Position numbers and translations under genes: made by a program. The notes under the pieces were generated by a model that ran no database searches, was not told the DNA's origin, and saw only the letters and a program-made list of their open reading frames with translations. Of a DNA stretch of 64,000 nucleotides, positions 2,865 to 62,252 are shown piece after piece. This stretch comes from Eledone cirrhosa (Eukaryota), in NCBI GenBank assembly GCA_964016885.1, contig OZ024742.1, positions 285,634,001-285,698,000 on the forward strand, read 5' to 3'. Within the stretch, counting starts at the first letter, position 1. Every line of letters begins with the position of its first letter.

Positions 2865-3036
2865 ATCGGTAGAGGGTCGGACGCCATGCATTGCAGCACA
2901 GAGTTACGTCCCTTTACGGACTGAGATTAAATCCAGCCGAGGTTAACTTTGCCTTTCATCCTTACGGGGTCGATAAAATAAAGTACCAGTAATGTACTGG
3001 GTAATTGCTGCCCTTGTTCCAAAAGTAGAAACAATT
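2865..3036 (+). mobile_element. SINE family 1 copy
   Basis: Matches 8184-8372. Confidence 0.85.
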
Positions 3037-4347: not shown

Positions 4348-4388
<41 letters not shown>

Positions 4389-4474
4389 ATAATAATAAAT
4401 TTGAAGACGAAAATCCAAAGAGGGCTCGATAAGGATAAATATATATCAAATATACAAGAACCGTAGAGCAAATA

Positions 4475-5405
4475 TTTATTAAAATAACATTAAAGTTTAA
4501 GCAAAAAATCGCTGCTTTCACCCTTAACGGGATCTTCTGAAACTAACAAAGACTTTGTTTCAACCTTACATTTGTAGACAATGTTACTAGAGAGGCATTT
4601 CCCGGATAGGGGACAATCAACCCGATTCCTACAATTACAGTTAGTACTAACTACAGGGTTGCACGTGTTCCTACTGCTAGGTAGTTTAGCTAAATTTGAA
4701 GCTGTGATGTTATGTGCAAGGTTAGGAGTTGATTGCCTCCTATCCGGGAAATGCCTCTCTAGTAACATTGTCTACAAATGTAAGGTTGAAACACCCACGT
4801 CCCGTAGGTCCTACATAGGGTTAACTGCCAATAGATTCAAGCAACGTCTTTACATGCATACCCATTCTTTTCGTTACCCTCTACGAAGGAATATGACGTC
4901 ACTTTCAGCTTATATCTGGAGTCTAAAAGACAACCACACCCAATATAAGTTACACTGGGAGATCCTAGCTAGGGCTAGATCGTATAACGGAAATAAAAGA
5001 CCTTGTGACCTCTGCGCCGCTGAGGCCCTGGAAATACTCTACGCCACAGACCACATCTTAAACAAAAAAAAATCTGAGGCAATTTCGGCTTGTAAACATA
5101 AATTGCACAAAACTTTCCTGTATTACAGCCCCACATTATACCCTAACGGATAGTACGATCTATACGTGGATATTTTACGTCTTGATGTGGTAGCTAAGTA
5201 TATGTTATGTTTATACCATTACTTATTTGCATAGGGAACGTTTCCACGATCCAAAGTATCGTCTTCCTGTCTTCCTCCGGTTGCAACGTTTTTTGAAATA
5301 TCCACTTCTGCGTTTACAGATTGACTTTGTTAGTTTCAGAAGATCCTGTTAAGGGTGAAAGCAGTGATTCTTTGCTTAAATTTTAATCTGTTATTTTAAT
5401 AAATA
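4475..5405 (+). mobile_element. Rearranged, truncated PLE copy: inverted EN/pLTR piece followed by EN, intron-less 3' UTR and HHR pLTR
   Basis: 4558-4625 is an inverted copy of 4728-4792; HHR-pLTR at 5332-5382 (+) and 4494-4544 (-); 3' UTR matches 15117-16160 minus the intron. Confidence 0.85.
4725..5153 (+). pseudogene. 5'-truncated PLE GIY-YIG endonuclease (Naiad-like)
   Basis: CLSSNIVYKCKV..SYIGLTANRFKQRLYMH..LSAYIWSLK..CDLCAAE..LNKK.SE..CKH. Confidence 0.9.
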
Positions 5406-5453
5406 TATCTCTATATATATATGTATGTATGTATATATATATATATATATATG

Positions 5454-8183: not shown

Positions 8184-8372
8184 GGGCGGTGAATTGGCAG
8201 TATCAGTAGAGGGTCGGACGCCATGCTTTCCAGCATAGTTACGTCCCTTTACGATCTGAGTTCAAATCCCGCCGAGGTTGACTTTGCCTTTCATCCTTAC
8301 GGGGTCGATAAAATAAAGTACCAGTAATGCACTGGGTAATTGCTGGCCTTGTGCCTAAAGTAGAAACAATTA
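8184..8372 (+). mobile_element. tRNA-derived SINE, family 1 (representative copy)
   Basis: A box tggcagtatcagtagag, B box gagttcaaatcc, conserved body ctttgcctttcatccttacggggtcgataaaataaagtaccag; more than 20 copies in the window. Confidence 0.9.
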
Positions 8373-14664: not shown

Positions 14665-14760
14665 TAAGCAAAGAATCGCTGCTTTCACCCTTAACGGGAT
14701 CTTCTGAAGATCCCGTTAAGGGTGAAAGCAGCGATTCTTTGCTTAAACTTTAATCTGTTA

Positions 14761-14765
<5 letters not shown>
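14665..14765. mobile_element. Palindromic (inverted + direct) mini-pLTR of the CAGAAGA HHR family
   Basis: Perfect 40-bp arms around position 14705; flanked by (TA)n. Confidence 0.8.
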
Positions 14766-14807
<42 letters not shown>

Positions 14808-15116: not shown

Positions 15117-15117
<1 letters not shown>

Positions 15118-16155
15118 ACATTATACCCTAACCGATAGTACGATCTATACGTGGATATTTTACGTCTTGATGTGGTAGCTAAGTATATGTTATGTTTATA
15201 CCTTTACTTATTTGCATAGGTAAGTATATATTACCTGTATGTTTTGTGAAGGTACGTATACTTTCTCATACGTATATTTGATTGTATATGTTATGGCGTA
15301 TATTTTTATATATTCTGGTACATATGCTTTTGGTTATGTGTATACGGGGGTTTTGCGTCTGTGTGAGTATGCGGGTTCGTACGTATGTTGGGTGTATGTA
15401 TGTGTACTTCATGTTTTGGTTGACGTACGTCTCCGAACATTTGTGTATTTACATGTAGGTATGTGTGTGTGCTTGTTATATACGTATTTATTTATTTATA
15501 TACGTTTATTTAATTATTTAATTATTTATTTATTTGTATACACGCACACACACACACACATATTTATATGTGCGTGGTTTTGTCTACCTATGGCGAGTGT
15601 TTTCGCGTATGCTTGTGTATGTACGTATTTGGACGCGTGTATGTATTTATTTCATTTCAATTACCTCTGTATTGTATTTTATTTACTTTATTCTTAACTC
15701 TGAAGCGGAGAAGCATTCGGTTTCCAAGTTAGAATTTTAGTCTACGACTTCAGCTATACCATTTACGCGGTTTTGTCTTTGCGTGCAATTGTTCTCCACG
15801 CTCCACATATGACGTATTATCTTCGTTTTTTCCGTTCATTGCCAGAGAACGTCTCTATGAACCACCTAAGAGAACATTAGTCTACGACTTCTTTTATACC
15901 ATAAACGTGGTTCTGTCTTTGCGTGTAATTGTTTTTCACCGCTCCTATTAATGATGTATTATATTCGTTTTTCCCGTTCTTTGCCAGGGAACGTTTCCAC
16001 GAACCAAAGTATCGTCTTCCTGTCTTCCTCCGGTTGCAACGTTTTTTGAAATATTCCCTTCTGCGTTTACAGATTGACTTTGTTAGTTTCAGAAGATCCC
16101 GTTAAGGGTGAAAGCAGCGATTCTTTGCTTAAACTTTAATCTGTTATTTTAATAA

Positions 16156-16160
<5 letters not shown>
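15117..16160 (+). mobile_element. 3' UTR + pLTR of the same PLE family, retaining a 768-bp GT-AG intron (15220-15987)
   Basis: Near-identical to 5131-5405 except for the insert tttgcatag|GTAAGT...ttcccgttctttgcCAG|ggaacgtttcc; flanked by (TA)n. Confidence 0.9.
16085..16135 (+). ncRNA. Hammerhead-like motif with non-canonical CAGAAGA core (also 5332-5382 +, 4494-4544 -, 43920-43970 -)
   Basis: agttt-CAGAAGA-t-ccc gttaa ggg-t-GAAA-gca..tgc-TT-aaact, present in four copies. Confidence 0.65.
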
Positions 16161-16379: not shown

Positions 16380-16556
16380 GTGGATTGGCAGTATCAGTAG
16401 AGGGTCGGACGCCATGCTTTCCAGCATACTTACGTCCCTTTACGATCTGAGTTCAAATCCCGCCGAGGTTGACTTTGCCTTTCATCCTTACGGGGTCGAT
16501 AAAATAAAGTACCAGTAATGCACTGGGTTATTGCTGGCCTAAAGTAGAAACAATTA
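16380..16556 (+). mobile_element. SINE family 1 copy
   Basis: Near-identical to 8184-8372. Confidence 0.88.
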
Positions 16557-16748
16557 TTTCTTCTTACTTTATAATATGTTACATAGCTCTGATATTGAGT
16601 CAATTTAATTATTCCGATTATCTTGTCTCTCATAATCATAGAGCAACACTGGTTAAGGTCGACAACACACAATCTCACATACTTGTGAAAAATGTATGTG
16701 TAAATATGCATGTATATGTATGTATACACATATTTGTGTACCTCTCAT

Positions 16749-17457: not shown

Positions 17458-17846
17458 CAGACCTGTCAACTCTCCGTCCAATGGGGAGATATCCAACCCA
17501 CTTTGGGGTAGGTGAGAGGTATCTTCCCTTGTGAAAATGGGTATAGCTTTTATTATGTAAATTCGGAGGATTGGCAGTATCTGTAGTGGGTCGGACGCCA
17601 TGCTTTGACGCATAGAGTTACGGCCCTTGCCATTCTGAGTTCAAATCCCGCCGAGGTTAACTTTGCCTTTCAACCTTTTGGGGTCGATGAAATAAATTAC
17701 CAGTAATACACTGGGTAATTGCTGGCCTTGTGCCAAATGTAGAAACAATTATGTAAATTCTCCCCCTTTTTTCCTCATTTCTCCCCGTTTTGAGGCACTT
17801 TTTTTCATGGTACTCCCCGTTTGGGTATTTAGAGGTTAACAGGTCT
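17458..17846. mobile_element. hAT-like MITE, interrupted by a SINE and itself inserted in an older SINE
   Basis: TIRs cagacctgtcaac / gttaacaggtct, duplicated flank acgtgtc. Confidence 0.7.
17565..17748 (+). mobile_element. SINE family 1 copy with 13-bp target-site duplication
   Basis: attatgtaaattc on both sides. Confidence 0.88.
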
Positions 17847-20094
17847 ACGTGTCGGTGAAATGCTCAGCTAATTTCAAGAGTAGGCTATAAACACGTCGAA
17901 CAACTGGTACTCATCATTGGAATCAACTGAGGCTCAACAACAACTTTATGGCCGATGATCAATTGTCAGAATACTGTCACCATATTACAAGCAAGGGGCT
18001 GAGATACAAAGGTTATTTTAAATAATTAAAAATTAATCCCGTCTGATTACGAAAGAATTATCTTGATGCTTTATCTTCTCACCAGTACTTGTAATATTAA
18101 TTAATTAATTAAATTACTTTACTCATTACATATATTACTTGTATTCTGTTTAAAATTAATATTAATTAGATGACATTTGTAAAATTTATTTCCTGATTTT
18201 CACCACTGCAGGTGTAATTTTAGTGTATTAAAGTATCTTAGCTCACTACATTGTGTATGTTACCACCTTCCTTACTATTTGGTTTTTATGGAGTGGGTGT
18301 CCCTGAGCAAGCCCCACCCCCACCACCATGTCGCTCTGTTGTGTTGCTATGATCAACTAGGTATAACGCTATACTATAGAACGTTATAACCGGAATAAAC
18401 ACTTTAAATCCGTCTCGTATTATCCTGAGATGAACTTTTCAATGAGGAATAAGTACGTATATAAAAATGATACTGCTATCCAAGAAACTGAATATTTATG
18501 CTTTAAAAGACTTAATAAAAGCTATGCTACTTAGTGTATCCTACTTGATATCTTATGTGCGTTAATAATCTCGGTTTTAATCTTAAATAAACATGAGGAA
18601 GTACATGATACCATCTCCTTTATATCTTCTTAAGCTTCTCCTCACTGACGTCTTCCACTTAGTTACCTTACTAAATACTTCCATAAATACGGATCTTGAA
18701 AACATCCATTAATGAGGACATAGAAACAAGTTCTGTTTCCAAAAGAAATACCTTAACTCCTTGTGGAATGGTAGGGTCACCATCATAACACATACCGTGT
18801 CTTGGTCCTTTTTAAGCTGATGGAGCCCATACTTTTCTAGATCTAAACACAACCGATATTTTCAAGAGAGAATATATAGCGAAAGAATAATTGGCCTCAG
18901 AACTGAAATTGTATTTTGTCTATTGACTTCGAAAAGATGATAGGCAAAGCTGACCTCTCGGTGAGATCTGAACACAGAGCGCACAGAGCTAGAACAATTA
19001 TCGAGACATTTAACCCGACCCCCTAACGCCAATTTTCCGCCTTAGATTGTTCGAATAACATCAAAATCTAATTAGTGTTTATATGGATGAAATAACTTGC
19101 AATCTTACGCCATTCAAACTCGTGAACAACTCTAAGGTTAAAACCTCCAGTTTCTTAGAAACATTAAACCTAAGAATATTTAATTATCTTTCATAACAAC
19201 AGTATATCTGTTGGTGGAATAAATATTACTGTTGGGACGTAATTAAGTGAAATAACTATATCCGCGAAAACAATACAGCGTATCTTATTAACGAGATAAT
19301 ATACATGTCTAGCAAGGGTGGTGAATTGACAGAGTCGTTAGAACGTTGGACAGAATGCTTTGTGGTATTCGTTTCGGTTCTCTGATTCTCTAAGTTCAAT
19401 CTTGCCAAGATCAATTTTACCTTTCATCATTTACATGTCGATAAAAAAAAGTACGAGTCTAGTACTGGAGGTCGATTCTTCCTCGATATCTCTTTCTCAC
19501 TTCCCCTCTCAGTCACTCTCTATCTTTATCTGAAAGAAATCTGCTGTCTTCAGACCTGGAGAGGAGATAGGATCCGCCAGGTTTAACACTTCCTTAGAAA
19601 CGCTGTATTTCAATACGGCTCTACTACGACTTCTTCAGGAGTTATGGAACCATACATACATTTCTAGCGAAACTTCTCTCCTTTGCAAAAATAAAAATGA
19701 ACATGCGTAGGCATGGCTATGCTGTGTGCTTAAAGAGTTTGCTTCAAAAGCACGTCATTGATTCAGTTCCGTTGCACGGTGACTTTGGGCAAATATCGGC
19801 TCACCATGTTCATCGACGCCATGTGAGTTTAATTTGGCAGGTGGAAACTATAGAAGTCCGTCATATATATATATATAGTGCAAATTTATACGGGAACAAA
19901 ACAGAGAGGCAGACAAATAAAGGTTTATTAGGTTCACGCTTTTGAGAGTTGGGATATATATATATCCAGGGGGTGTAACTTGGAGTTACTGCAGGTTCTC
20001 CCGGGAGAGCACTCGATGTTTACCTGCAGTAACTCCAAGTTACACCCCCTGGATATTTAGCTCCTTTCTTTGTCGAGCGCTTATCTGGAACACC

Positions 20095-22620
20095 ATGGAA
20101 TTGTTCTACAACACTTCTTCCCTAAAGGACATACCTATACCTTCGGATGATGTGTACATGGACCTATTACTAAAGCAGACAAATAATTTCATCAGGAGGA
20201 TCCGCTGGAGGGCCTACCACTACAACAACAGAAGGGCCCCCGGATCAAGTGACAATTCCACCAACCACATAAAACAACTTTTTAAATCGACGAAAAACCC
20301 ACCGCAGAACCCACTCCTAGAGGAGTTTGAGGACAGGATCATTACCATGGTCCGGACCATTAGATTCAGGAAACCACCGCGAAACCCTGACAGAAGTGCA
20401 TTCCTGTCTGGGCTCGCATCTACTGTAAAAAAGATCAGGAATAGCCCTGGCATCATCGTACCAGCCGATAAAACAGGAAACTTATACCATTGGGAGTACA
20501 AAACTTACAACAAATGCATTACAAACGAAATCGTTAAAATATGAAAAACATCAACACGGGAAAACCTAGCACACATAAACAAACAGGCGAAACGAATAAT
20601 GACCGAATTGAGTATTGACGACAGGACTCATCCCTACAACCCTAGGACACCGAGACTATCTATTAAAGACCATAAACCGGACTTCCAGTCAAAACTACCG
20701 GTCAGGCTCATAGCCCCGTCTAAATCGGACCTAGGTAGACTTAGCAAACCAATCATTGACCGAATTATGCCTGAACTTAGAAATAGAACTAAACTCAGCC
20801 TATGGTCTTGTACAAAGGAGGTAATCGACTGGGTTTGTGGCATTGAAACTAAGTCGAATGTTCGATTAGTCCAATTGGACATTACAAACTACTTCGCATC
20901 TATATCCCCCAATCATCCTTAACAAGACACTGATCTCAGCCATGAACAGATCAAGCCTCACTAGAAATGAAGTGGACATCATACTAACAGCTAGGAAAAC
21001 TTTACTAGATTTTGACGGTAGATTGTGGGAGCGACAGAATAGACCAGATAGCTTCGACATTACCATAGGATCGACTGACTCCGCACAGGTTACATATATA
21101 GTAGGCATATACCTCTTAAATATATTAACAGACGAGATCCCCTCCTTGGGCGGCGGTGGCTTATACCGTGATGATGCCCTACTAATGACCCGTGGACTCA
21201 ATAATAACCAATTAGTTAGACTACACAAACGACTTAGGTGCATCTTTAAGACCCAAGGATTAGCGATAGAAATTAAACCTAACAATAGGACAGTAAACTT
21301 TTTAGATGTCACCCTAGAATTAGACTCAGGCCTCTACCGTCCATACCACAAACCTAATAAAAATTTTAAATACGTCAACAGACACCCCAACAACCCTAGG
21401 AGCATAATTAGCTAAATAGTTAAAAGCGTCTCCAATAGAGTGTCCACCCTGTCGGCAAATAGAAATATCTTCAACCAGCACGCGGAATACTACAACTCCG
21501 CACTTGTAAATGCTGGTTACATTGAGAAGGTTTCTTACATCGACTCAAATAGAACCGTAACGCCGCTAAACATAACCGGACCCTTAGAAACGAACATAGA
21601 AGAAGTCACCACACCTAGGACAAATAATAACCTAAGACCCTCTGTAGCCGGCAGGCAGCCAGCGTCACGCACAACTGTCAAGGAGATAAAGCCATACTCT
21701 CCACCCCCAATAAGGACTCCGACTATCGCACACGTTTGCGTAGCAATAGAGACAAAAGACATAACGCCAATAGATTACTTGGAACCCCTATGACACATAC
21801 GCCTGACCAAAACGCACCCAAACTAATACCCAACCACAAAAACCTCACTAAACACCGCAGAACCCGAAGTAGACCTGTCACATGGTACAACGTGTATTCT
21901 ATACACGTCGCCACCAATATACCGGGAATCTTCTTCAGGGCTCTCGAACAATGTTTTCCACGCACACATAAATACCACAAGCTCTTCAATAGACAAGCTC
22001 TTTAAATCTAGGCCACACAATAGCACGCACTAATAGGACAAAAATACGAAAACACATGGTTGCCCCACAACAAACCACCACCACAACCCAGAACGAAACC
22101 ACACACACAACACAACACAACACCCACATACCAGATCCACACCGCATGCCACCAACCGCCAATGTGCCACCACACCGGTTACACCCAACTGCAATTGCAA
22201 AAAACGGGCCGAATGCCCACCAAACGGGGAGTGCCTCGTTAAAAACATTGTTTACCGGTGTGATGTCACAGCCGGCAATAAAGAGTACTCATATATAGGT
22301 GCGACATCCACTACGTTTAAGGAGCGCTGGTATAACCATAGAAGCTCCTTTAAACATAGGCTGAAACGATCCTAAACCAGACTAGCCGATTTGATCTGGG
22401 ACCTCAAGGACAGGAACATCGAACCCCAGATCTCGTGGTCAGTGAAAAGACGCGTGGCACAACTCCCCAGTGACAGAAGCCACTACAGGTTATGCCTGGC
22501 TGAGGCGGCAGAAATAATTAAATTAAAATCTGCCATAAACTATAGGTCGGACATAATTGTCAATTGCAGACACACCAGGCTGAACACATTTTCGCACAAA
22601 CATTCGGGGGAGGACCGCGC
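20095..22620 (+). pseudogene. Decayed Penelope-like RT + GIY-YIG ORF (Naiad-like), several stops and frameshifts
   Basis: Fragments SLKDIPIPS..IRRIRWRA, PADKTGNLY, IKDHKPDF..VRLIAPSKSDLG, QLDITNYFASI, IGSTDSA, LYRDDAL, VNFLDVTLEL, YHKPN, CNCKKRAECP, IVYRC..YIGATSTTFKERWYNH, CLAE, NCRH; collinear with the 53238 ORF. Confidence 0.92.
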
Positions 22621-23601: not shown

Positions 23602-24297
23602 TATAAAGTATGTCCATAGAATCATTTGATAATATATATACACCATTTCCTCCCCCATTTAGCATAATTAACCACACAAAAAAATCAATTAGACCAGGCT
23701 ATAAGATTAAAAGGCACTTATGAAGAAATAGTAAATAAATAAACGATAGCAATCTCTTCGCGTGTATATATGTGTGTGTATATATGTATGTATGTGTGTG
23801 TATGTGTATGTTTATGTATACGTGTGTGTACGTGTATGTGTGCATAACAGTATGTGTGTGTGTGTGTGTTTGTGTGTATGTATGTATGTGTATGTCTATA
23901 TGTACAACACCATCTCCATTGGCTCTCACCTTCCCTCTATCTTTGTTCTACGCCCCCGCCCCCACCGATCCCCCCCTCTATATATATCCACACGCGCGCA
24001 TGCACATATCTGTGTGTATATATGCATATAGATATATGTATGTGTGGATCTATGTGGGCGCGTGTATGTGTGTGTATATAAGTGTGTACGTATGTATATA
24101 TATCAGTATATATGCGCATGTATACATATATATACAACGTATTTGTCAGACTAAGAGTGTCTAGGTATGTATCTCCCCATGGACCCGACACCACCAACAC
24201 ATCCACCACACCACCACAAACGCCACTACCATAAACAACCACACCACAACCACACCCCGCAACGCCAACCCGTCTACCGACAACCCACTACCCCCAC

Positions 24298-25657
24298 ATC
24301 ACAGCCCATCCCAGACAGCGCACTGTCACCAACATCTTATCATCACACCCACCCACACATACACTACAGGCCAAAGCCAATCCGCCACCACCACAACCCA
24401 TCCCAGACAGCGCACTGTCACCAACATCTTATCATCACACCCACCCACACATACACTACAGGCCAAAGCCAATCCGCCACCACCACAACCCATCCCAGAC
24501 AGCGCACTGTCACCAACATCTTATCATCACACCCACCCACACATACACTACAGGCCAAAGCCAATCCGCCACCACCACAACCCATCCCAGACAGCGCACT
24601 GTCACCAACATCTTATCATCACACCCACCCACACATACACTACAGGCCAAAGCCAATCCGCCACCACCACAACCCATCCCAGACAGCGCACTGTCACCAA
24701 CATCTTATCATCACACCCACCCACACATACACTACAGGCCAAAGCCAATCCGCCACCACCACAACCCATCCCAGACAGCGCACTGTCACCAACATCTTAT
24801 CATCACACCCACCCACACATACACTACAGGCCAAAGCCAATCCGCCACCACCACAGCCCATCCCAGACAGCGCACTGTCACCAACATCTTATCATCACAC
24901 CCACCCACACATACACTACAGGCCAAAGCCAATCCGCCACCACCACAGCCCATCCCAGACAGCGCACTGTCACCAACATCTTATCATCACACCCACCCAC
25001 ACATACACTACAGGCCAAAGCCAATCCGCCACCACCACAGCCCATCCCAGACAGCGCACTGTCACCAACATCTTATCATCACACCCACCCACACATACAC
25101 TACAGGCCAAAGCCAATCCGCCACCACCACAGCCCATCGCAGCCAGCGACCGTCACCAACATCTTATCATCACACCCACCCACACATACACTACAGGCCA
25201 AAGCCAATCCGCCACCACCACAACCCATCCCAGACAGCGCACTGTCACCAACATCTTATCATCACACCCACCCACACATACACTACAGGCCAAAGCCAAT
25301 CCGCCACCACCACAGCCCATCCCAGACAGCGCACTGTCACCAACATCTTATCATCACACCCACCCACACATACACTACAGGCCAAAGCCAATCCGCCACC
25401 ACCACAGCCCATCGCAGCCAGCGACCGTCACCAACATCTTATCATCACACCCACCCACACATACACTACAGGCCAAAGCCAATCCGCCACCACCACAACC
25501 CATCCCAGACAGCGCACTGTCACCAACATCTTATCATCACACCCACCCACACATACACTACAGGCCAAAGCCAATCCGCCACCACCACAGCCCATCCCAG
25601 CCAGCGACCGTCACCAACATCTTAACATCACATCCACCCCCACATACACTACAGGCC
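24298..25657 (+). repeat. 92-bp minisatellite, about 15 near-identical copies
   Basis: Unit cccatcccagacagcgcactgtcaccaacatc...ccaccaccacaa at 24305, 24397, ... Confidence 0.95.
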
Positions 25658-25766
25658 AGTACATCCCTTTGATCCTTCCCACCAATCAAAACAACTCATA
25701 TTGTCAAACTCTTGAACTTCTGTCTTTACCATATAGCATGTATTTCATTTTCTTATAGCATTTTAA

Positions 25767-25994: not shown

Positions 25995-26699
25995 ACGGGT
26001 ACAATCCACTCGATGGGCTTCGAAACAGCTCCCCCCTATATAATTTCACTCACAAAGCTTAGGTTAACCCGAGACTATGGTAAAAAATATTTTCTTAAGA
26101 TGTCACGCAGTGGGATCGAACCGAAAACCTCGTGTACAAGACTTGATTTAATGATGAGGAAGGGTGAGGGAGCAAAGGGACCCTGTACGTGTGTGCTTGA
26201 GTGTGTGTTTTGGAGGGAGGGGGGGGGGGCTCCACCAGCTACGGCCGCTGCAATTTATTTGTGTCCTGAGCTGAGCTTTTTAGTTTTAAGAGGGTTAAAA
26301 AATGTTTAATCTAATACCTGTATGTATAACTTTTCAATTCCAATTACTTGCACCAAGGTGACTTTGATATGTAAAACTGGGGGTTTGTTGTGTATTCCAC
26401 GCAACATCTGAAGTGTCCCCCCCCCCCCCCCCAGGTCTAAATCCATCCGTGTACATACAGAAGCTGTACATGAAAAAAGTGACACAAGACAAAGCATAAA
26501 AGTACATTCTTCTCTAGAAACCCATGTAAATCTATGACGTCATAGTCAAGAGTATACTTGTATAGGGGATTAAGTCTACAGACGATATAAGATGGAAAGG
26601 GAGTTAGTAACATTCATGCCTTTCCCATTGTCATAAATTAGGGAAACTAAAACACGACTATTTCTTTATTTCATCTTTTATATTCTTCTGTAGCTGAAA

Positions 26700-26747
26700 C
26701 AACTACTACTGTTACTACTACTATTGCCTCTACAACTGCTACTACTG

Positions 26748-26782
<35 letters not shown>

Positions 26783-26801
26783 GCTGCTGCTGCTGCTACT
26801 A

Positions 26802-26851
<50 letters not shown>

Positions 26852-26864
26852 GCTGCTGCTGCTG

Positions 26865-26917
<53 letters not shown>

Positions 26918-26933
26918 GCTGGTGCTGCTACTG

Positions 26934-26983
<50 letters not shown>

Positions 26984-27002
26984 GCTGCTGCTGCTGCTAC
27001 TA

Positions 27003-27058
<56 letters not shown>

Positions 27059-27071
27059 GCTGCTGCTGCTG

Positions 27072-27139
<68 letters not shown>

Positions 27140-27155
27140 GCTGGTGCTGCTACTG

Positions 27156-27211
<56 letters not shown>

Positions 27212-27224
27212 GCTGCTGCTGCTG

Positions 27225-27271
<47 letters not shown>

Positions 27272-27314
27272 GCTGCTGCTGCTGCTACTACTACTACTAC
27301 TACTACTACTACTG

Positions 27315-27361
<47 letters not shown>

Positions 27362-27377
27362 GCTGGTGCTGCTACTG

Positions 27378-27457
<80 letters not shown>

Positions 27458-27473
27458 GCTGGTGCTGCTACTG

Positions 27474-27529
<56 letters not shown>

Positions 27530-27548
27530 GCTGCTGGTGCTGCTACTG

Positions 27549-27622
<74 letters not shown>

Positions 27623-27644
27623 GCTGGTGCTGCTGCTGCTACTG

Positions 27645-27697
<53 letters not shown>

Positions 27698-27716
27698 GCT
27701 GGTGCTGCTGCTGCTG

Positions 27717-27772
<56 letters not shown>

Positions 27773-27791
27773 GCTGGTGCTGCTGCTGCTG

Positions 27792-27847
<56 letters not shown>

Positions 27848-27866
27848 GCTGGTGCTGCTGCTGCTG

Positions 27867-27922
<56 letters not shown>

Positions 27923-28017
27923 GCTGGTGCTGCTGCTGCTACTGCTATTGTTGCTGCTGCTGTTGAATATTTCTTCATCACAACCATAAAAAATTATCTC
28001 AGTACTAGTTTTTTTCT

Positions 28018-28076
<59 letters not shown>

Positions 28077-28077
28077 G

Positions 28078-28119
<42 letters not shown>

Positions 28120-28120
28120 T

Positions 28121-28151
<31 letters not shown>

Positions 28152-28154
28152 GCT

Positions 28155-28193
<39 letters not shown>

Positions 28194-28215
28194 GCTACTG
28201 CTGCTGCTGCTGCTA
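26700..28215. repeat. Compound (CTA)n/(CTG)n microsatellite with higher-order periodicity
   Basis: (CTA)n blocks punctuated by ctgctggtgctg or cttctgctgctg. Confidence 0.95.
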
Positions 28216-28344
28216 TTTTCGCATATGCAGTTTCGGTATCTATAGCTTCCATATTTCCTCCTCCTTCTTTTTGTATTAGATCCCCTCATCCCTCCACTTA
28301 CACCACTTACACTCATCACAGCCTGGTGAAAACCTTGCTTTCAT

Positions 28345-28895
28345 CCTCTTTTTCACCCCCTCTCATCCTCTCTTTTTCACTCCCTCTCAACCTCTCTTTT
28401 TCACTCCCTCTCATCCTCTCTTTTTCACTCCCTCTCATCCTCTCTTTTTCACCCCCTCTCATCCACCTCTTTTTCACCCCCTCTCATCCTCTCTTTTTCA
28501 CCCCCTCTCATCCTCTCTTTTTCACCCCCTCTCATCCTCTCTTTTTCACTCCCTCTCATCCTCTCTTTTTCACCCCCTCTCATCCTCTCTTTTTCACTCC
28601 CTCTCATCCTCTCTTTTTCACTCCCTCTCAACCTCTCTTTTTCACTCCCTCTCATCCTCTCTTTTTCACCCCCTCTCATCCTCTCTTTTTCACTCCCTCT
28701 CATCCTCTCTTTTTCACTCCCTCTCATCCTCTCTTTTTCACTCCCTCTCATCCTCTCTTTTTCACTCCCTCTCATCCTCTCTTTTTCACTCCCTCTCATC
28801 CTCTCTTTTTCACTCCCTCTCATCCTCTCTTTTTCACTCCCTCTCATCCTCTCTTTTTCACCCCCTCTCATCCTCTCTTTTTCACCCCCTCTCAC
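28345..28895. repeat. 24-bp pyrimidine-rich minisatellite
   Basis: Unit ctctttttcactccctctcatcct, about 23 copies. Confidence 0.95.
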
Positions 28896-29006
28896 TCTCA
28901 TCCTCTCTCTTTCCCTCCCTCTCCCTCTCATTCACACTCCTTTATCTATTCTTCCCTCAATGTTTCACTATCTTTCCCTCCCTCTCACATTCTGTCTCTC
29001 ACTCAC

Positions 29007-29068
<62 letters not shown>

Positions 29069-29634
29069 ATCTCTCTCTTTCATATCTCTTTCTTCCCCTC
29101 TCTCCCTCTCTTTCTCACTCATCTGTTCTTTTCTAGTATTCTGACAGTTTGCCAAAATAACACATGTAATCCTCCAGGTCCATCTGTCTACTGATACACA
29201 CACACAGATATATATACATATATATATACAGATATATATACATATATATATACATATATATACACATAGATATACGCACACACTAACACACATACATATA
29301 TATATACATAAATATATATAGATACATATATATACACAATATACGCACACACACACACACGCACACACATTATATATACGTATGCATACATACACGTATA
29401 TATTTACATAGACACTCACATATATGCATACATGCACACACATGTACGTATACATGTATACATGCATACATATGTATTTACATACAATGCATACATGCAT
29501 ACGTACGCACATACATACATACATACATACATACACACATATGCACACATACACATATATGATTACATGCACACACATGTACATATATATTTATATAGAT
29601 ATGTACATGCATACGTACTTATACATACATACAT

Positions 29635-31989: not shown

Positions 31990-32179
31990 AATTGTTTCTA
32001 TTTTTGGAACAAGGCCACCAATTATTCCAGTGTATTACTGGTACTTTATTTTATCGACCCCGTAAGGATAAAAGGCAAAGTTAACCTCGGCGGGATTTGA
32101 ACTCAGTCCGTAAAGGGACGTAACTGTGCTGCAAAGCATGGCGCCCGACCCTCTACCGATACTGCCAATTCACCGCCCT
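31990..32179 (-). mobile_element. SINE family 1 copy
   Basis: Reverse complement match to 8184-8372. Confidence 0.88.
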
Positions 32180-43846: not shown

Positions 43847-43905
<59 letters not shown>

Positions 43906-44083
43906 AAATAACAGATTAAAGTTTAAGCAAAGAATTGCTGCTTTCACCCTTAACGGGATCTTCTGAAACTAAAAAAATCAATCTGTGAACGCAGAAATAA
44001 ATATTTCGAAAAACGTTACACACTATATATATATATATACACACACACTGTACTGCCTCTCTGTTTTGTTCCCGTTCCATTTT

Positions 44084-45019: not shown

Positions 45020-45577
45020 CTCTTGTTTATCTTGTGTAAGATTGCATGTATTTGTCTCTGTGTGTGTGTCTGTGTCTGTGCGGTTAGAGTGCCACGCTGA
45101 ATCTCCTTGAGAACTACGTTAAGTGTACACGTGTCTGTGGAATGCTCAATCACTTGTGGGTTAATCTCACGAGCAATCTCTTCCGTTGTTTAAACAACAG
45201 GGACATACGTCGTCGGAACCGACCGAGACCCCAAAGTATTATTATGCCTGATACCTTGTATGTATTAATTTTGAGTTGATAGCAGCTGCGTTGTTCAAGT
45301 ATTTATCAAGTGTGTGTGGGTGTGTGTGTGTGTTGCAGTTGAAGTGCCTTCAAATATTAATTAAACAGACTATGGTTCATTGACGAAGTGTGGAGATACA
45401 GGAATCCCACCAAACACTACCACCACCACCACCACCACCACCATCACCACTACTGTTACTACTACTACTTAACCAAATCACGCCGTAGTGGTGATTTAAT
45501 TCAGCTGAGTATCAAGAGAAAAGCTCATCATAAACCAAATCTTATCCTGGGTCTTATAAAAACTTATTAAACTAAAT

Positions 45578-45892
45578 AATTGTTTCTACTTTTGGCACAA
45601 TGCCAGCAATTACCCAGTGCATTACTGGTACTTTATTTTATCGACCCCGTAAGGATGAAAGGCAAAGTTAACCTCGGCGGGATTTGAACTCAGATCATAA
45701 AGGGCCGTAACTCTTTGCTGCAAAGCATGGCGTCCGACCCTCTACCGATACTGCCAATCCACCACCACTTATCAAGCTAAATAATTGTTTCTACTTTTGG
45801 TACAAGGCCAGCAATTACCCAGTGCATTACTGGTACTTTATTTTATCGACCCCCGTAAAGATGAAAGGCAGAATTAACCTCGGCGAGATTTG
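45578..45892 (-). mobile_element. Two tandem SINE family 1 copies
   Basis: Reverse complement match; second copy truncated. Confidence 0.85.
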
Positions 45893-52718: not shown

Positions 52719-52798
<80 letters not shown>

Positions 52799-52830
52799 AT
52801 TATGTAATAAACAACATAAGGCAATTATTC

Positions 52831-52884
52831 CATTTACCAGTGGTTTCTTAAAAGCAAAAGGTTTTGCTTTCAATCCTCAGAATG
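52831..52884 (-). ncRNA. Hammerhead ribozyme motif in inverted pLTR
   Basis: Reverse complement of 52962-53015. Confidence 0.8.
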
Positions 52885-52961
52885 AAAACATCCTGGTTTG
52901 TTTATTGAATTTGGATTTTTGTTTTTTAAAATCCAAATTCAATAAACAAACCATGATTTTT

Positions 52962-53015
52962 CATTCTGAGGATTGAAAGCAAAACCTTTTGCTTTTAAGA
53001 AACCACTGGTAAATG
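52962..53015 (+). ncRNA. Type I hammerhead ribozyme motif in 5' pLTR
   Basis: catt-CTGAGGA-ttgaaagcaaaa/cc/ttttgcttttaa-GAAA-cca c tgg-TA-aatg: canonical core, stems I-III. Confidence 0.85.
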
Positions 53016-53237
53016 GAATAATTGCCTTATGTTGTTTATTACATAATAATAATAATTAAGCTCTGTTGCCTACATAGAGCACTCTTTTTTCCTGGACTTT
53101 TCCGATGGAATTACTTCATTTATACAGCTCCTACCGGGATTGATCGAAGCATATTCTATATTACATATACGATTGGCACTTTCCAGCCCGATTAGTTGAG
53201 CACTCTACAGTTTTCAGGAATTTAACCAACATACACC

Positions 53238-55373
53238 ATGGACCTTTATGATTTGGATTATTCTATCAAAAATATACCCACTCCTTCCAACACAACTTAC
53301 ACCAAAATCCTCATAGATAAAATCGAACAAGTCGTTAAAAGAATGAGATGGAAGGCAATGGTTTACGATGGACTATTCAGTGCTGATACTAAAGATTGTT
53401 TTGACATTAAATCCCGTAAATATCCACCTAGAATTAAAGACATGGCCAACTTCGAATTAGACCTCGTTAATCTAATTAGTGATATCAAATTTCGTAAGTA
53501 CAATAATAACTTTCAAACTAAACTTTCTAACGATATTTCTAATTTTAGAAATTCTACAAACACTTTCGTTCTTTCTGATAAAACTAAAAACCTCTTTGAA
53601 GTTAATAGTAATTTGTATAACCAACTTTTAACTAATAGTATTACCAATAAATATCAATTAACTAATAATAATACCTACAATACTATCAATAAAGAAGCTA
53701 AAGAACTAGCTAGTTCTTTACAAATAGATAACCGGATTGAAAGCTTAGCTAAGCGTAAAGAATATATTACCCTTAAAGACCATAAATTGGACTTTACTAA
53801 TCGACCTAGTTGTAGACTGATTAACCCGGCTAAATCCGAGGTTGGCCTTGTTAGTAAGAAAATCTTAAGAAAAATAATTCTCCAACTTAGAACTAAGACT
53901 GACCTATCACAATGGCTAAATACTTCCTCTGTTATTTCTTGCTTCAATAATATACAAGGTAAAAATAAGTATAGATTTACCCAATTTGATATTGTCGATT
54001 TTTACCCTTCTATTACTGTTTCCTTATTAACTAATGCCTTAGAATTTGCAAGACCCTTCATTAATATCTCTAAATTAGAAGAGGACATTATCTTTCATGC
54101 TAGAAAAACTTTACTTTTTACTAATGATAATATTTGGGTTAAAAAGTCAAACCCTGAAAACTCTTTTGATGTTGCAATGGGTTCATATGACAGTGCGGAT
54201 GTGTGTGACTTAGTAGGATTATTCCTTCTCCACACACTCAAAGAGAAATTTCCGTCCCATAATATCGGTTTATACCGTGATGACGGATTAGCAGTTTCTC
54301 ATACCACCAACGGCCATAATCTTGATAAATTCCGTAAAGATTTAATCAATACTTTTGCTAATCTTAACCTTAAAATTACTATAGATACGAACCTTACTAA
54401 TGCTAACTTTCTTGATATTAATCTTGATCTACTTACTGCCTCTTTTAAACCCTATCATAAACCTAATGAAAATCTTAGGTATATACACAAAGAGTCTTGC
54501 CATCCCCCTATAGTTTTTAATAATCTTATTCCTAACATTAGCCGTAGGATTTCTACCTTATCTTCGTCTATAGACATTTTTAATAAAGCCAACCCTTATT
54601 ATAATAAAGCCCTTAAGAACAGCGGTTTTACAGAAAAAATTTCTTATTTACCTACTCCCCCCCCCCCTAAAACTAACCATAATAACAGGAAAAGGAAGAT
54701 TATTTGGTTCACACCCCCCTTCTCTCTAACTGTCAAAACTAATGTAGGAAGGAAATTCCTTGAACTATTAGACAAACATTTTCCTCCTATTCATAGATAT
54801 TATAAGATTTTTAATAGGAATGTAGTTAAGATCAGCTACTCTTGTTGCCCATCTATGAAGTCCAAAATCACCAGTTCAAACCGTACGAGGATAAATCCAG
54901 GATGCAGTTGCAGGAAGCCGGATGAATGCCCATTGCAGGGTAAATGTAACACAAAATCTGTCGTTTATGAGGCTAAGATAACGCCAGTAATCAACAACCA
55001 GCCAGCCAGGAGTGAGCGATATGTCGGTATGACCCAGGACAGGTTTAAAACCAGATTTTACTCACATGTCGCTTCTTTTAAGCACTCCGATAAACGAACA
55101 TCAACGGCCCTCGCAAGTAAGGTATGGGATCTCAAGGATAGTAACATCCCGTACTCTATTGATTGGTCTATATTAGACCATTCGAGGGAGTACCAAAGGG
55201 GCACAAAGAATTGTTCTTTGTGTACCACAGAAAAGTATAGGATTTTGCTAAACTTGAGAGCCACTTCCGCTTGCCTTAACTCAAAGACTGAGATCTTCAG
55301 ATGCTGTCCTCATCTGAAATCGCATCTGATCTGTAACTGGATTGACACTCCTATGATAAATCAACCGCCTTGA
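53238..55373 (+). CDS. Penelope-like element polyprotein: reverse transcriptase + C-terminal GIY-YIG endonuclease (Naiad-like), uninterrupted 711 aa
   Basis: RT motifs [57 protein letters not shown]; linker [15 protein letters not shown] (CxCx5C); EN motifs [43 protein letters not shown]; good ATG context (caccATGg). Confidence 0.95.
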
Positions 55374-55564
55374 ACTCCTTCTCTGCTCTTTACTTCTGCT
55401 ACGGTTTTTATTTTGCTGATTCTACGTTCTGTACTCTTGTATATTTACTAAATCTTTTTCTCCCTTACCTCCCCTTATATTTTACCTCCTCTTATGCCCC
55501 CCCCCCCCCAATATATTCTTTTTGTTTTGCCCTTCACATACCTATGTGTATGTGTATGTATTTT

Positions 55565-55729
<165 letters not shown>

Positions 55730-55800
55730 ATGTGTATGTGTATATATATGTATATTTGTGTGTGTATATGTATGTATATGTGGATAAACCAGGTTTTTTT

Positions 55801-55854
55801 CATTCTGAAGATTGAAGGAAACATTTTTTGCTTTTAAGAAACCTCTGGTGAATG
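55801..55854 (+). ncRNA. Diverged internal hammerhead/pLTR copy, probably inactive
   Basis: catt-CTGAAGA...GAAA-cctctgg-TG-aatg; broken stem II and GUG at the cleavage triplet. Confidence 0.6.
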
Positions 55855-56007
55855 GAATAATTGCCTTATGTTGCTTTATTACTTTACTACTATATATACG
55901 TTTATGTAAGGTTCATTTGTCTTATCTAAGACTGAGTTTTACACATATACACATGTATATGTGTGTGTGTATGTGCATGCATATGTGTATATGTACGTAT
56001 ATGTGTA

Positions 56008-56050
<43 letters not shown>

Positions 56051-56073
56051 ATGTGTGTGTGTATTTATATATA

Positions 56074-56129
<56 letters not shown>

Positions 56130-56242
56130 TATTTGGTTGTGCGTGTTTTTTATATATACGTATTTGCATGTGTATAATTGTTTAGCTATGTATGTATATG
56201 TGTTTACGTATATGTGTGTGTGTGTGTGTGCGTTTATATTTT

Positions 56243-56307
<65 letters not shown>

Positions 56308-57006
56308 ATAATTACATATACATGTGTGTGTGTTTATATTGTATAAGTGTGCGTGTTTGTGTATGTATGTGTATGTATTTGTTTATGTATTTGTATATGT
56401 ATATTTATGTGTGAGAGTGTGTGTATGTGTTTACTATTTCGTACGTATGTATACGTGCTTTTGTGTGTATTACTTACCACGCGTGTCTGTCCTGTTAGCT
56501 GGTTCATGTAACGGTGTCAACAATTTTTTAATATATATCCCACATTTTCGAATATCTTTCGCGGATATAGAGGTTATCTCCCTTGCAGGACACCATGTGC
56601 GTCTCAACTAGGGTTGGCTTTTTTATTCGTTTGGACAAAGCCCGTTGATAAAGTATTCCGGTCCGCCGCTCTCTAGAAGTCTTATATATTTTTATGTGGG
56701 CTGATAGGGGGCGGATTAAGGAATTACAGAAACCCAAGAAGCTAGATTTACCATCTTTCTAGTGGGTCCGGGTAAGCTTTTTACATTCATATGATTTATT
56801 GATTTATTGATATTTTATCTGAGTGACCCGAATCTTCCTGATCGTAATTTTTCGGTCGTATGGGTGATTTTAGACATAATCTTTGTGTGTTGGTATTTTA
56901 ACGATAGTTATAGCTCTGATTTATCTGAATTATTGAGCCCTCTGCCACTCATGTCGAATTTGTTTATCGCGAACTCGTGAGCCGATTTTTCGATACTCGA
57001 TTATTC

Positions 57007-57063
<57 letters not shown>

Positions 57064-57242
57064 TTTTCTTATATTTATTTGCGTGTGTGAATATGTAGAG
57101 GAGTGCATTCATGTATGTGTATGTATGTACGTTTTGTATGTTTGTGTGAATGTATGTATATATATGTGTGTGTGTATGGCTATGTTTGTGTATGTGTATG
57201 CTTGTACACACACATGTGTATGTGTGTGTATGTGTATGTGTG

Positions 57243-57286
<44 letters not shown>

Positions 57287-57301
57287 TATATATATGTGTG
57301 T

Positions 57302-57366
<65 letters not shown>

Positions 57367-57639
57367 AATTTATGTATGTGTATATGTGTGTATATATGTG
57401 TATGTGTATGTAAGTGTACGTTTTATATATATGTGTATATGTATATATGTATGCGTACATATATATATGTATATATGTATGTGTGTGTAAGTATGCTTTT
57501 TTGTTTTTTTTGTGTGTGTGTTTGCATGTGTAGTTTTATTTTATTTTTCCTTTCCTTCTCCCTTCTCCAGCCTCACTTTCATATAGATTGCTTTTTTGTT
57601 TTTTAAAATCCAAATTCAATAAACAAACCAGGATTTTTT

Positions 57640-57693
57640 CATTCTGAGGATTGAAAGCAAAACCTTTTGCTTTTAAGAAACCACTGGTAAATG
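57640..57693 (+). ncRNA. Hammerhead ribozyme motif in 3' pLTR
   Basis: Identical to 52962-53015. Confidence 0.85.
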
Positions 57694-57798
57694 GAATAAT
57701 TGCCTTATGTTGTTTATTACATAATAATAATAATTAAGCTCTGTTGCCTACATAGAGCACTCTTTTTTCCTGGACTTTTCCGATGGAATTACTTCATT

Positions 57799-57830
<32 letters not shown>

Positions 57831-61198: not shown

Positions 61199-62067
61199 TT
61201 GTTATTTATTCAATCGTTTATTTCCGAGAGTTGCGTAAGCCCCAACTCAATCAACAAATAATGGCGTAATCAGAATGGAGCACTCTATGTCAATAGTATG
61301 CATCCTCTAATGATATAATATCGCGTTTGACATTATACGAATGAACGTTTAGACTGGTTTGTCTAGTTACATAACTATATTTATTATTATGTAACATTTA
61401 TGTAATTACGTAACTGCAACAACAACTGGTATGTCATCATCAGATAGTTACATAAATAATAAATAAAGTTGTTGATATACATCCATCATTGACACACTAT
61501 GGAGTACTATTGCTGCATTTGTTCAAGTACTCTACATTCTGAGTTCAAATCCCGCCAGGGACAACTTTGTATTTCACCCTTCTGAGGTTTGTAAAATAAA
61601 GTATCAACCATGCATTGGGTTTGATTTAATCAACTTTGCTCTTCCCTCAAGTTTGCTGGCCTTGTGCCTAAATTAGAAATCAATATTTTTACTGAAATGA
61701 ATATAATGTGCTCAATGCTGGAGGTTGAGCAAAATACATAATGTAAACTTCCCATTTACCATTGTTTCATCAAAATCGTAATAAAGACAATTTGTAAAAA
61801 ATGTGTGGTATCTATCACCAGAAATAGAGCAATAGTGTGAGAAAATGAAATATAATAGAGGAGAAGAATTGGAAAGAATTAGAGGCTCAGACTATCTTAG
61901 AATATCACGAAATAGGATGAATGGAGATATATATACAGGGATTAATTCAGAAATTAACCAATATAAAATATAAACAAAATAATTAAATTAAAATGAAATA
62001 AAATACTATATATTTTTTTAAATCATAAAACAGAATTTATTGGATTCGTGAGTTTTGTATCTAATAA

Positions 62068-62252
62068 TAATTGTTTCTACTTTTGGCACAATGCCAGCAA
62101 TTATCCCCGTGCATTACTGGTACTTTATTTTATCGACCCCATATGGATGAAAGGCAAAGCTAACCATGGCAGGATTTGAACTCAGAACATAAAGGGCCAT
62201 AACTCTATGCTGTAAAGCATGGTGTCTGTCGCTCTACCAATTCTGCCAATCC
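62068..62252 (-). mobile_element. SINE family 1 copy
   Basis: Reverse complement match. Confidence 0.85.

Follow-up and report, generated by a model that had tools for sequence, protein, structure and literature searches.

Introns in the terminal repeats of Penelope-like elements (PLEs) are already known, and intron retention is a signature oddity of this group whose cause is stated to be unknown in PMC8557442. To explain it, PMC3846280 proposes either an antisense template or unspliced sense RNA as the template, and PMC2377424 invokes selection that disfavours intron-less copies. The relevant passages of PMC3846280 argue that the head-to-head structure of insertions and intron retention point to an antisense template, and leave unspliced sense RNA open. 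In Penelope of D. virilis, the pLTR carries a 75-bp intron situated 46 bp downstream of the start site; most transcripts have it spliced out, and production of reporter protein depends on it (PMC2377424). Chlamys-3_cRei of Chlamydomonas, a member of an N-terminal endonuclease clade without a hammerhead, has a 398-bp 5' UTR intron with Iso-Seq support, and the passage that describes it reports no intron-less genomic copies (PMC8557442). PAc (Poseidon), the PLE of Anolis carolinensis, uses sense RNA in vitro with internal initiation, and has several fixed 3' termini, with start sites inside the ORF and a tail of 30–40 nt (PMC11167929). The Hydra clade is described by RWK, a change from DKG to DKT, a CxCX5C linker, CxxC and CxH around conserved E and N residues, and (TA)n insertion, in units shorter than 3 kb (PMC8557442); the text and supplement excerpts of that paper, figures aside, mention no intron in Hydra-clade families. 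Our literature search, whose scope did not extend to figures and key subscription papers, so that an earlier mention is possible, found no census of spliced PLE copies, and passages of PMC12477816 and bioRxiv 10.64898/2026.07.22.740005 add nothing further on the question.

The window analysed here is a stretch of 64,000 nt from Eledone cirrhosa that holds two copies of a PLE family, one with and one without an intron; related copies were sought in the 3.0-Gb genome. The predicted protein identifies the element as a Penelope-like element with Hydra-clade motifs. Its unit, measured from tandem copies, is ~3.3 kb rather than the <3 kb of the Hydra clade because of the intron. The copy L147 encodes an intact 708-aa protein in a single ORF, and at least 1,600 of the 8,000 candidates scored are relatives of it, 120 of them listed at 39–57% identity. 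Pfam and PDB sequence searches with the family protein gave no match. The protein model (pLDDT 92) has telomerase RTs as its top seven PDB fold matches (best E 9e-9, with low TM-scores of 0.32–0.35). At the C-terminus, a GIY-YIG endonuclease is recognizable from Y..YIG and conserved R, H, E and N columns in 99 homologues, with H in L147 at the conserved R column; PF01541 weakly matches 2 of 10 homologues scanned, the query itself having no Pfam match, and there are Atlas clusters with GIY-YIG. The layout is that of a PLE as well, with partial-tandem pLTRs, an inverted 5'-truncated arm and a tail at one end. The telomerase-like RT fold, the GIY-YIG columns and the partial tandems thus bear out the assignment to PLEs made in a preliminary description of this DNA.

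The motifs shared with the Hydra clade (PMC8557442) are RW(K/R), DKT, the CxCX5C linker, CxxC before E, CxH after N, (TA)n, a candidate hammerhead layout and a single ORF of ~710 aa. In the present family they comprise RWR at residues 37–39 (K in 73% of homologues), DKT at 115–117, the linker cysteines C566-C568-C574, and C661/C664, E667, N680 and C689/H691, which are 99–100% conserved. In 278 of 298 arms, the 3' end is flanked by (TA)5. The Hydra assignment rests on the motifs and the (TA)n flanks; excerpts of the reference Hydra RTs look alike by eye. A first guess of the Nematis / Neptune clade was dropped, as the linker is CxCX5C and not CX2-5CxxC, and the motif is DKT and not DKG.

The intron-bearing copy in the window starts at 15117, where it is 5'-truncated at a (TA)n run. 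Its upstream pLTR exon (15117–15219, + strand) comprises the last ORF codons, the stop codon TAG at 15136–15138 and 81 nt up to the donor. The 768-nt GT-AG intron that follows (15220–15987, +) opens with GTAAGT and closes with CAG after a pyrimidine tract; it has the features of a U2-type intron (GT donor, pyrimidine tract, YAG acceptor). The corresponding intron of L147, a C-type copy, is 750 nt long. The downstream pLTR exon (15988–16160, +) ends at the first of three family 3' termini. Within the intron lies a duplicate of ~143 nt, the first unit of which (15731–15864, +) is 82% identical to 15871–16006 and carries a second, upstream acceptor (CAG, 15843–15845). This acceptor is used by none of the 163 spliced donors in the fetched loci, most of which were selected via the normal junction, and two A-variant matches use the normal acceptor.

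The intron-less arm (4728–5402, +) contains the C-terminal linker, the GIY-YIG coding region, a stop at 5151–5153, the junction and the downstream exon. When the flanks of the intron (15117–15219 and 15988–16160) are joined and aligned with the copy at 5131–5406, 266 of 277 columns match and the junction falls exactly at 5234/5235, so the precise removal of 768 nt claimed in the preliminary description is confirmed. Its placement of the intron downstream of the stop codon and about 100 nt upstream of a hammerhead also agrees with the measured distances, which are 81 nt from stop to junction and 102 nt from the acceptor to the start of the hammerhead-like core at 16090. The insertion is a composite and is larger than had been described: an inverted ORF piece (4556–4729, −) lies at the 5' junction of the insertion, and an inverted head-to-head arm (4383–4551, −) consists of the 3' part of the downstream exon and a tail of ~92 nt, and is too short to reveal its splice state.

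The hammerhead-like motif (16085–16135, +) comprises stem I, the core CAGAAGAT, a 3-bp stem II, TGAA, a 4-bp stem III and the return strand of stem I. On features drawn from PMC4209133, and on a by-eye comparison of layouts in which stems I–III and both core boxes fit File S2 of PMC8557442, we regard it as a candidate hammerhead in a Hydra-type layout, with a non-canonical core: it reads CAGA where the Hydra clade has CUGA, with A at position 4 (U4A). The constrained fold has an energy of −12.4 kcal/mol against −15.2 kcal/mol for the minimum-energy fold, so the hammerhead topology is not the most stable one; free folding does not single it out (z = −0.5), and Rfam at the gathering threshold has no match anywhere in the window, this motif included.

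In a partial tandem, 134 nt separate the downstream exon from the ORF ATG. Upstream of this ATG the unspliced leader contains 17 ATGs, and the 315-nt spliced leader has none; an ATG-free leader was obtained in 0.5% of 5,000 shuffles, and one ATG appears in the spliced leader if 40 nt of exon 1 are included. With splicing, the 17 upstream ATGs would all be lost, which makes a Penelope-type 5'-leader intron of the pLTR the best interpretation. The 3' UTR location given earlier stands for the downstream copy, but the intron is more than that, since in the partial tandem it is predicted to lie in the 5' leader of the downstream ORF. A pLTR intron is also present in Penelope of D. virilis (PMC2377424), which belongs to a different clade; the intron described here is ten times longer and full of upstream ATGs, and splicing and promoter activity are experimental results there, whereas here splicing, start site and expression are deduced from DNA copies. 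Chlamys-3_cRei (PMC8557442) likewise has a long 5'-leader intron tied to its pLTR. A counted minority of exact intron-less genomic copies distinguishes the present family from the described features of D. virilis Penelope (PMC2377424).

Both forms were counted genome-wide with exact 24-nt patterns, so that the counts are lower bounds and their units are arms, not insertions. Three marker types of the downstream exon, G-TTTC, C-TTTC and C-TTAC, define three subfamilies, in which we found 73 spliced against 3,635 intron-bearing arms (2.0% spliced), 151 against 1,853 (7.5%) and 14 against 1,717 (0.8%), respectively, a nine-fold variation in the spliced share (p=5e-38). The preliminary description knew the intron-less form from one copy; in total, 238 exact intron-less junctions stand beside 7,205 exact intron-bearing acceptors, or 3.2% of 7,443 arms. 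Acceptors are the fair denominator because their distance to the 3' end equals that of the spliced junction; set against the 2,478 exact donors, the spliced share would be 8.8%. The acceptor patterns contain one or two degenerate letters and the spliced patterns none, which gives a small bias to the intron form. Reversed-pattern controls had no match genome-wide. That the family retrotransposes both forms, as was proposed, holds to the extent that each was inserted many times, but in the very unequal proportion of about 97:3. The exact junctions in 238 DNA copies suggest that the intron is spliced out of RNA. Contigs from three runs of unrecorded type, compared with L147, contain a 750-nt GT..AG skip in two runs (one sample) and lack it in the third; these runs are possibly the assembly's own source and served only as a check on 3' termini.

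The arms of one insertion almost always share their splice state, which is a new observation here and constrains how tandem and inverted structures are built. We fetched 10 kb around all G-type spliced junctions, the first 40 clusters of a further list and the remaining C-TTAC clusters, and took the window's own G-type junction from the window sequence. Among 37 insertions with at least two callable arms and at least one of them spliced, 32 were all-spliced and five mixed. Three of the mixed cases are separate neighbours across a microsatellite (two of these being older relatives), and the other two, L133 and L134 (G000:C13, 100 kb apart, inverted), go back to a single insertion that was duplicated; its short arm is spliced and its long arm bears the intron, and no other real mixed case was found. 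Nine further loci, chosen for matching arms, were left out of the 37; with them the all-spliced total is 41. Arms of one insertion share rare alleles at 0.37–0.39% of sites, compared with 0.02% for random pairs, and differ from one another at about 3% of sites, so they were probably copied from the same template and not homogenized later. In L073, all three arms have a changed acceptor (GAG for CAG), which makes it a clear case of what appears to be one template copied three times.

How the intron-less copies arose can be weighed against these counts. That one or a few copies lost the intron by chance, through a DNA deletion between AG|G microhomologies, would be in keeping with the 3 nt (AG|G) shared by the boundaries of G-type copies, and microhomology deletions do disable PLE copies (PMC3846280). 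In C-type copies, on the other hand, AG is all that donor and acceptor have in common, and the microhomology route does not work for them; these copies hold 165 of the 238 exact junctions and make up two of the three subfamilies. Both arms moreover lose the same 750–768 nt together, unlike independent deletions. The counts and the concordance already refute this explanation, whose probability we regard as negligible; intron loss is neither chance nor a single event. One ancient intron loss (or gain) that gave rise to a self-amplifying intron-less subfamily would leave the splice label clustered on trees, as is observed. On trees that used only exon and ORF columns and a single arm for each locus and state, arms of poor upstream cover being left out, the label changes 24 times on 98 rows and 30 times on 130 rows, compared with means of 33 and 43 for shuffled labels (0 of 500 shuffles as low); part of this clustering stems from sampling, and tree support is weak, with two starred branches. 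The C-T-AA haplotype group is also rich in spliced copies (35 of 45 sampled C-TTTC spliced insertions against 4 of 21 intron-bearing ones), some of its alleles occurring mainly in them. A single spliced clade is nevertheless rejected (AU test, p-AU 0.008), and spliced copies bear the markers of each subfamily, the youngest included. In each haplotype group, their divergence from the subfamily majority is close to that of their unspliced counterparts (spliced/unspliced 2.26/2.30, 1.84/1.80, 1.99/1.54, 1.42/1.43 and 0.8/1.03%, the smaller cells holding only 2–8 copies). In a first sample of 89 spliced and 99 unspliced copies, no spliced-only allele was present in more than four insertions. We also considered, and rejected, a 2-nt deletion as the mark of an intron-less master lineage: this most suspicious haplotype is purely spliced in the sample and mixed in the genome search, where 10 of its 30 matches on C1–C3 lie at spliced junctions (assigned by hand) and 20 run into the intron, 18 of them with canonical and two with mutated donors. 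In the wider haplotype group, 19 of 93 matches on C1–C2 coincide with spliced junctions, as judged by hand. Each source lineage tested thus made both forms, at different rates. The lack of a single spliced clade and the equal age of spliced copies and their intron-bearing kin indicate that intron-less copies arose repeatedly, and a single ancient loss is very unlikely. Some secondary copying from intron-less donors may have occurred; that a few such donors added copies is a minor version of the same idea which we hold to be rather doubtful.

Three further explanations were weighed. Reverse-transcriptase-mediated intron loss is a route to precise loss, and recombination with spliced cDNA after insertion, or conversion from arm to arm, could have produced the mixed event L133/L134. 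If arms were converted independently, however, mostly mixed pairs would result, whereas 32 of 37 insertions are all-spliced, and arms that differ at about 3% of sites have not been homogenized; as a general explanation this is highly improbable. The hypothesis of PMC3846280 could be extended such that intron-bearing copies derive from an antisense RNA template and sense RNA serves only the 3% minority. It would explain the 97% retention at once, as well as the lack of a pile-up of intron-bearing arms at the supposed start site (1 of 50; see below). Both classes, however, have the same three 3' termini, (TA)n flanks and head-to-head layout, so that one route suffices, and the Anolis PLE uses sense RNA in vitro (PMC11167929); we consider antisense templates for the majority quite unlikely. 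Lastly, in an extension of what the preliminary description suggested, splicing of the 3' copy of the intron, 81 nt after a stop codon, could mark RNA for nonsense-mediated decay (NMD) and leave mainly unspliced RNA to copy. The 81 nt exceed the 50–55 nt between stop and junction that the rule for mammals sets as its limit. Long spliced 3' arms are nonetheless made routinely (89 of 165 spliced arms run at least 299 nt upstream of the junction), and the subfamilies differ nine-fold despite an unchanged stop-junction layout. Such a filter, compatible with the explanation we favour below, is unlikely to be the cause.

The 3' ends and the layout of the spliced insertions bear directly on the antisense question. 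The three termini, one at the end of the exon and two lying ~39 and ~92 nt past it, are common to 165 spliced and 137 unspliced arms (p=0.55) and are also visible as loose ends in the three-run contigs on L147. PAc of Anolis (PMC11167929) likewise has several fixed 3' termini, fitting internal RT starts on sense RNA; its start sites are inside the ORF, whereas the termini here, at 0, ~+39 and +92, are upstream of the ATG at +134. (TA)n flanks were found at 157 of 163 spliced and 121 of 135 unspliced arms. The 41 all-spliced insertions consist of 39 simple head-to-head pairs, one head-to-head pair with a tandem and one tandem, so a head-to-head pair is present in 40 of them. Because a spliced junction is only possible on the sense strand, the head-to-head structure would not need an antisense template, provided that most spliced insertions are primary. 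The tails and layout of the spliced insertions weaken the published antisense-template argument, which is a new observation, and a head-to-head structure made from sense RNA would agree with the sense-RNA internal initiation reported in vitro (PMC11167929). Only two spliced tandems are available, the full-length insertions L084:2359-7759 and L306:3363-6335; every pLTR in them is intron-less, their upstream arms reach past the supposed start window, and neither shows the 'upstream spliced, downstream unspliced' order that a plain linear mRNA model predicts.

This family carries a GT-AG intron in its pLTR that about three in 100 copies lack exactly, and we consider it likely that the reason is a reverse transcriptase that usually copies unspliced sense RNA and occasionally spliced RNA. 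The upstream pLTR of a partial tandem would hold the start site, and splicing would give an ATG-free leader, as in D. virilis Penelope. Reverse transcription would begin on sense RNA at the tail sites, in line with the in vitro result for the Anolis PLE, and both arms would be copied from one RNA or RNA class, the splice state being set per template. Most copying would use unspliced RNA, with spliced RNA serving more rarely or less well, and intron-less copies would seldom, if ever, found their own lineages. Donor selection alone cannot explain an intron in about 97% of arms. Thousands of unspliced and hundreds of spliced copies amount to a natural, strand-marked experiment: the spliced class starts only from sense RNA, so its architecture directly tests the antisense argument, and the census gives a genomic handle on how PLEs keep introns.

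A further new observation is a pile-up of arm ends just before the junction, ten times denser than further upstream. Of 165 spliced arms, 38 end 14–39 nt upstream of the junction, which is 1.46 per nt compared with 0.15 over the next 260 nt; for intron-bearing arms, the corresponding stretch before the donor holds one of 50 ends (p=2.5e-4), and the stretch equally far upstream of the acceptor four of 69 (p=1.3e-3). In these statistics the arms are not fully independent, and ends less than 13 nt from the junction are invisible to the patterns used. The pile-up predicts either a start site or a protein block. On balance we lean towards a transcription start site, the stop being the 5' end of the mRNA, a reading in keeping with Penelope's short first exon and with the steep drop beyond −40. 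Cap-derived or non-templated G before the short 5' ends shows no excess (6 of 38, counted by eye). An exon junction complex sits about 20–24 nt upstream of junctions, and a block by this complex is a possible but tentative reading. It fits the lack of a pile-up in unspliced arms and the pairing of short with long spliced arms: among the 15 loci that have several arms including a short spliced one, its partner is a spliced arm of at least 245 nt in 11, another short or medium spliced arm in two, and an intron-bearing arm in two (one event). Our literature search for exon-junction-complex effects on reverse transcription ends found nothing. Other causes are improbable. A fuller version, which we regard as speculative and rather unlikely, holds that sense RNA alone yields the full tail and head-to-head layout, that a single junction in one RNA is copied into both arms, that on spliced templates the reverse transcriptase stalls 14–39 nt upstream of the junction, at the position of the exon junction complex, and that introns are kept because spliced mRNPs are poor templates. 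The pairing of short with long spliced arms and the lack of a G excess speak in its favour. If this stall were real, the genome would be a fossil read-out of PLE reverse transcription, and introns would not be kept via antisense copying.

Older relatives of the family occur at 43894–44020 (−) in the window and in L074, L093, L098, L267 and L285, with downstream exons 88–92% identical. The relatives in these five loci have acceptors similar to the upstream duplicate unit; possibly, an old and a new acceptor are joined in the 143-nt duplication. A short palindromic remnant of the family, with only the hammerhead region in two orientations, lies at 14665–14772, and short inverted pairs of exon 2 only, similar to this remnant, were seen in many loci.

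The window also contains a second PLE family with the same motifs at 52786–57804. Its ORF (53226–55373, 715 codons from stop to stop) is 42% identical to that of the first, and its N-terminus resembles by eye Hydra-1_Obim (PMC8557442). It includes a pLTR arm in inverted orientation and a core reading CTGAGGA..GAAA. The stop is followed by a repeat-rich stretch of ~2.2 kb, at whose end, near 57570 and immediately ahead of the repeat, there are a pyrimidine tract and CAG; this stretch is possibly another pLTR intron. At 19921–21415 lies another PLE RT of this kind, the third in the window, which is broken and has RWR, DKT and YRDD motifs. The long open frames at 24155–25758 and 26651–29194 are tandem or simple repeats and not evidently genes. 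A dispersed SINE-like repeat of ~170 nt has many copies in the window at 84–92% identity, for example at 113–291, 2870–3036, 8204–8371, 16395–16558, 17588–17750, 31990–32155, 45575–45744 and 62063–62226.
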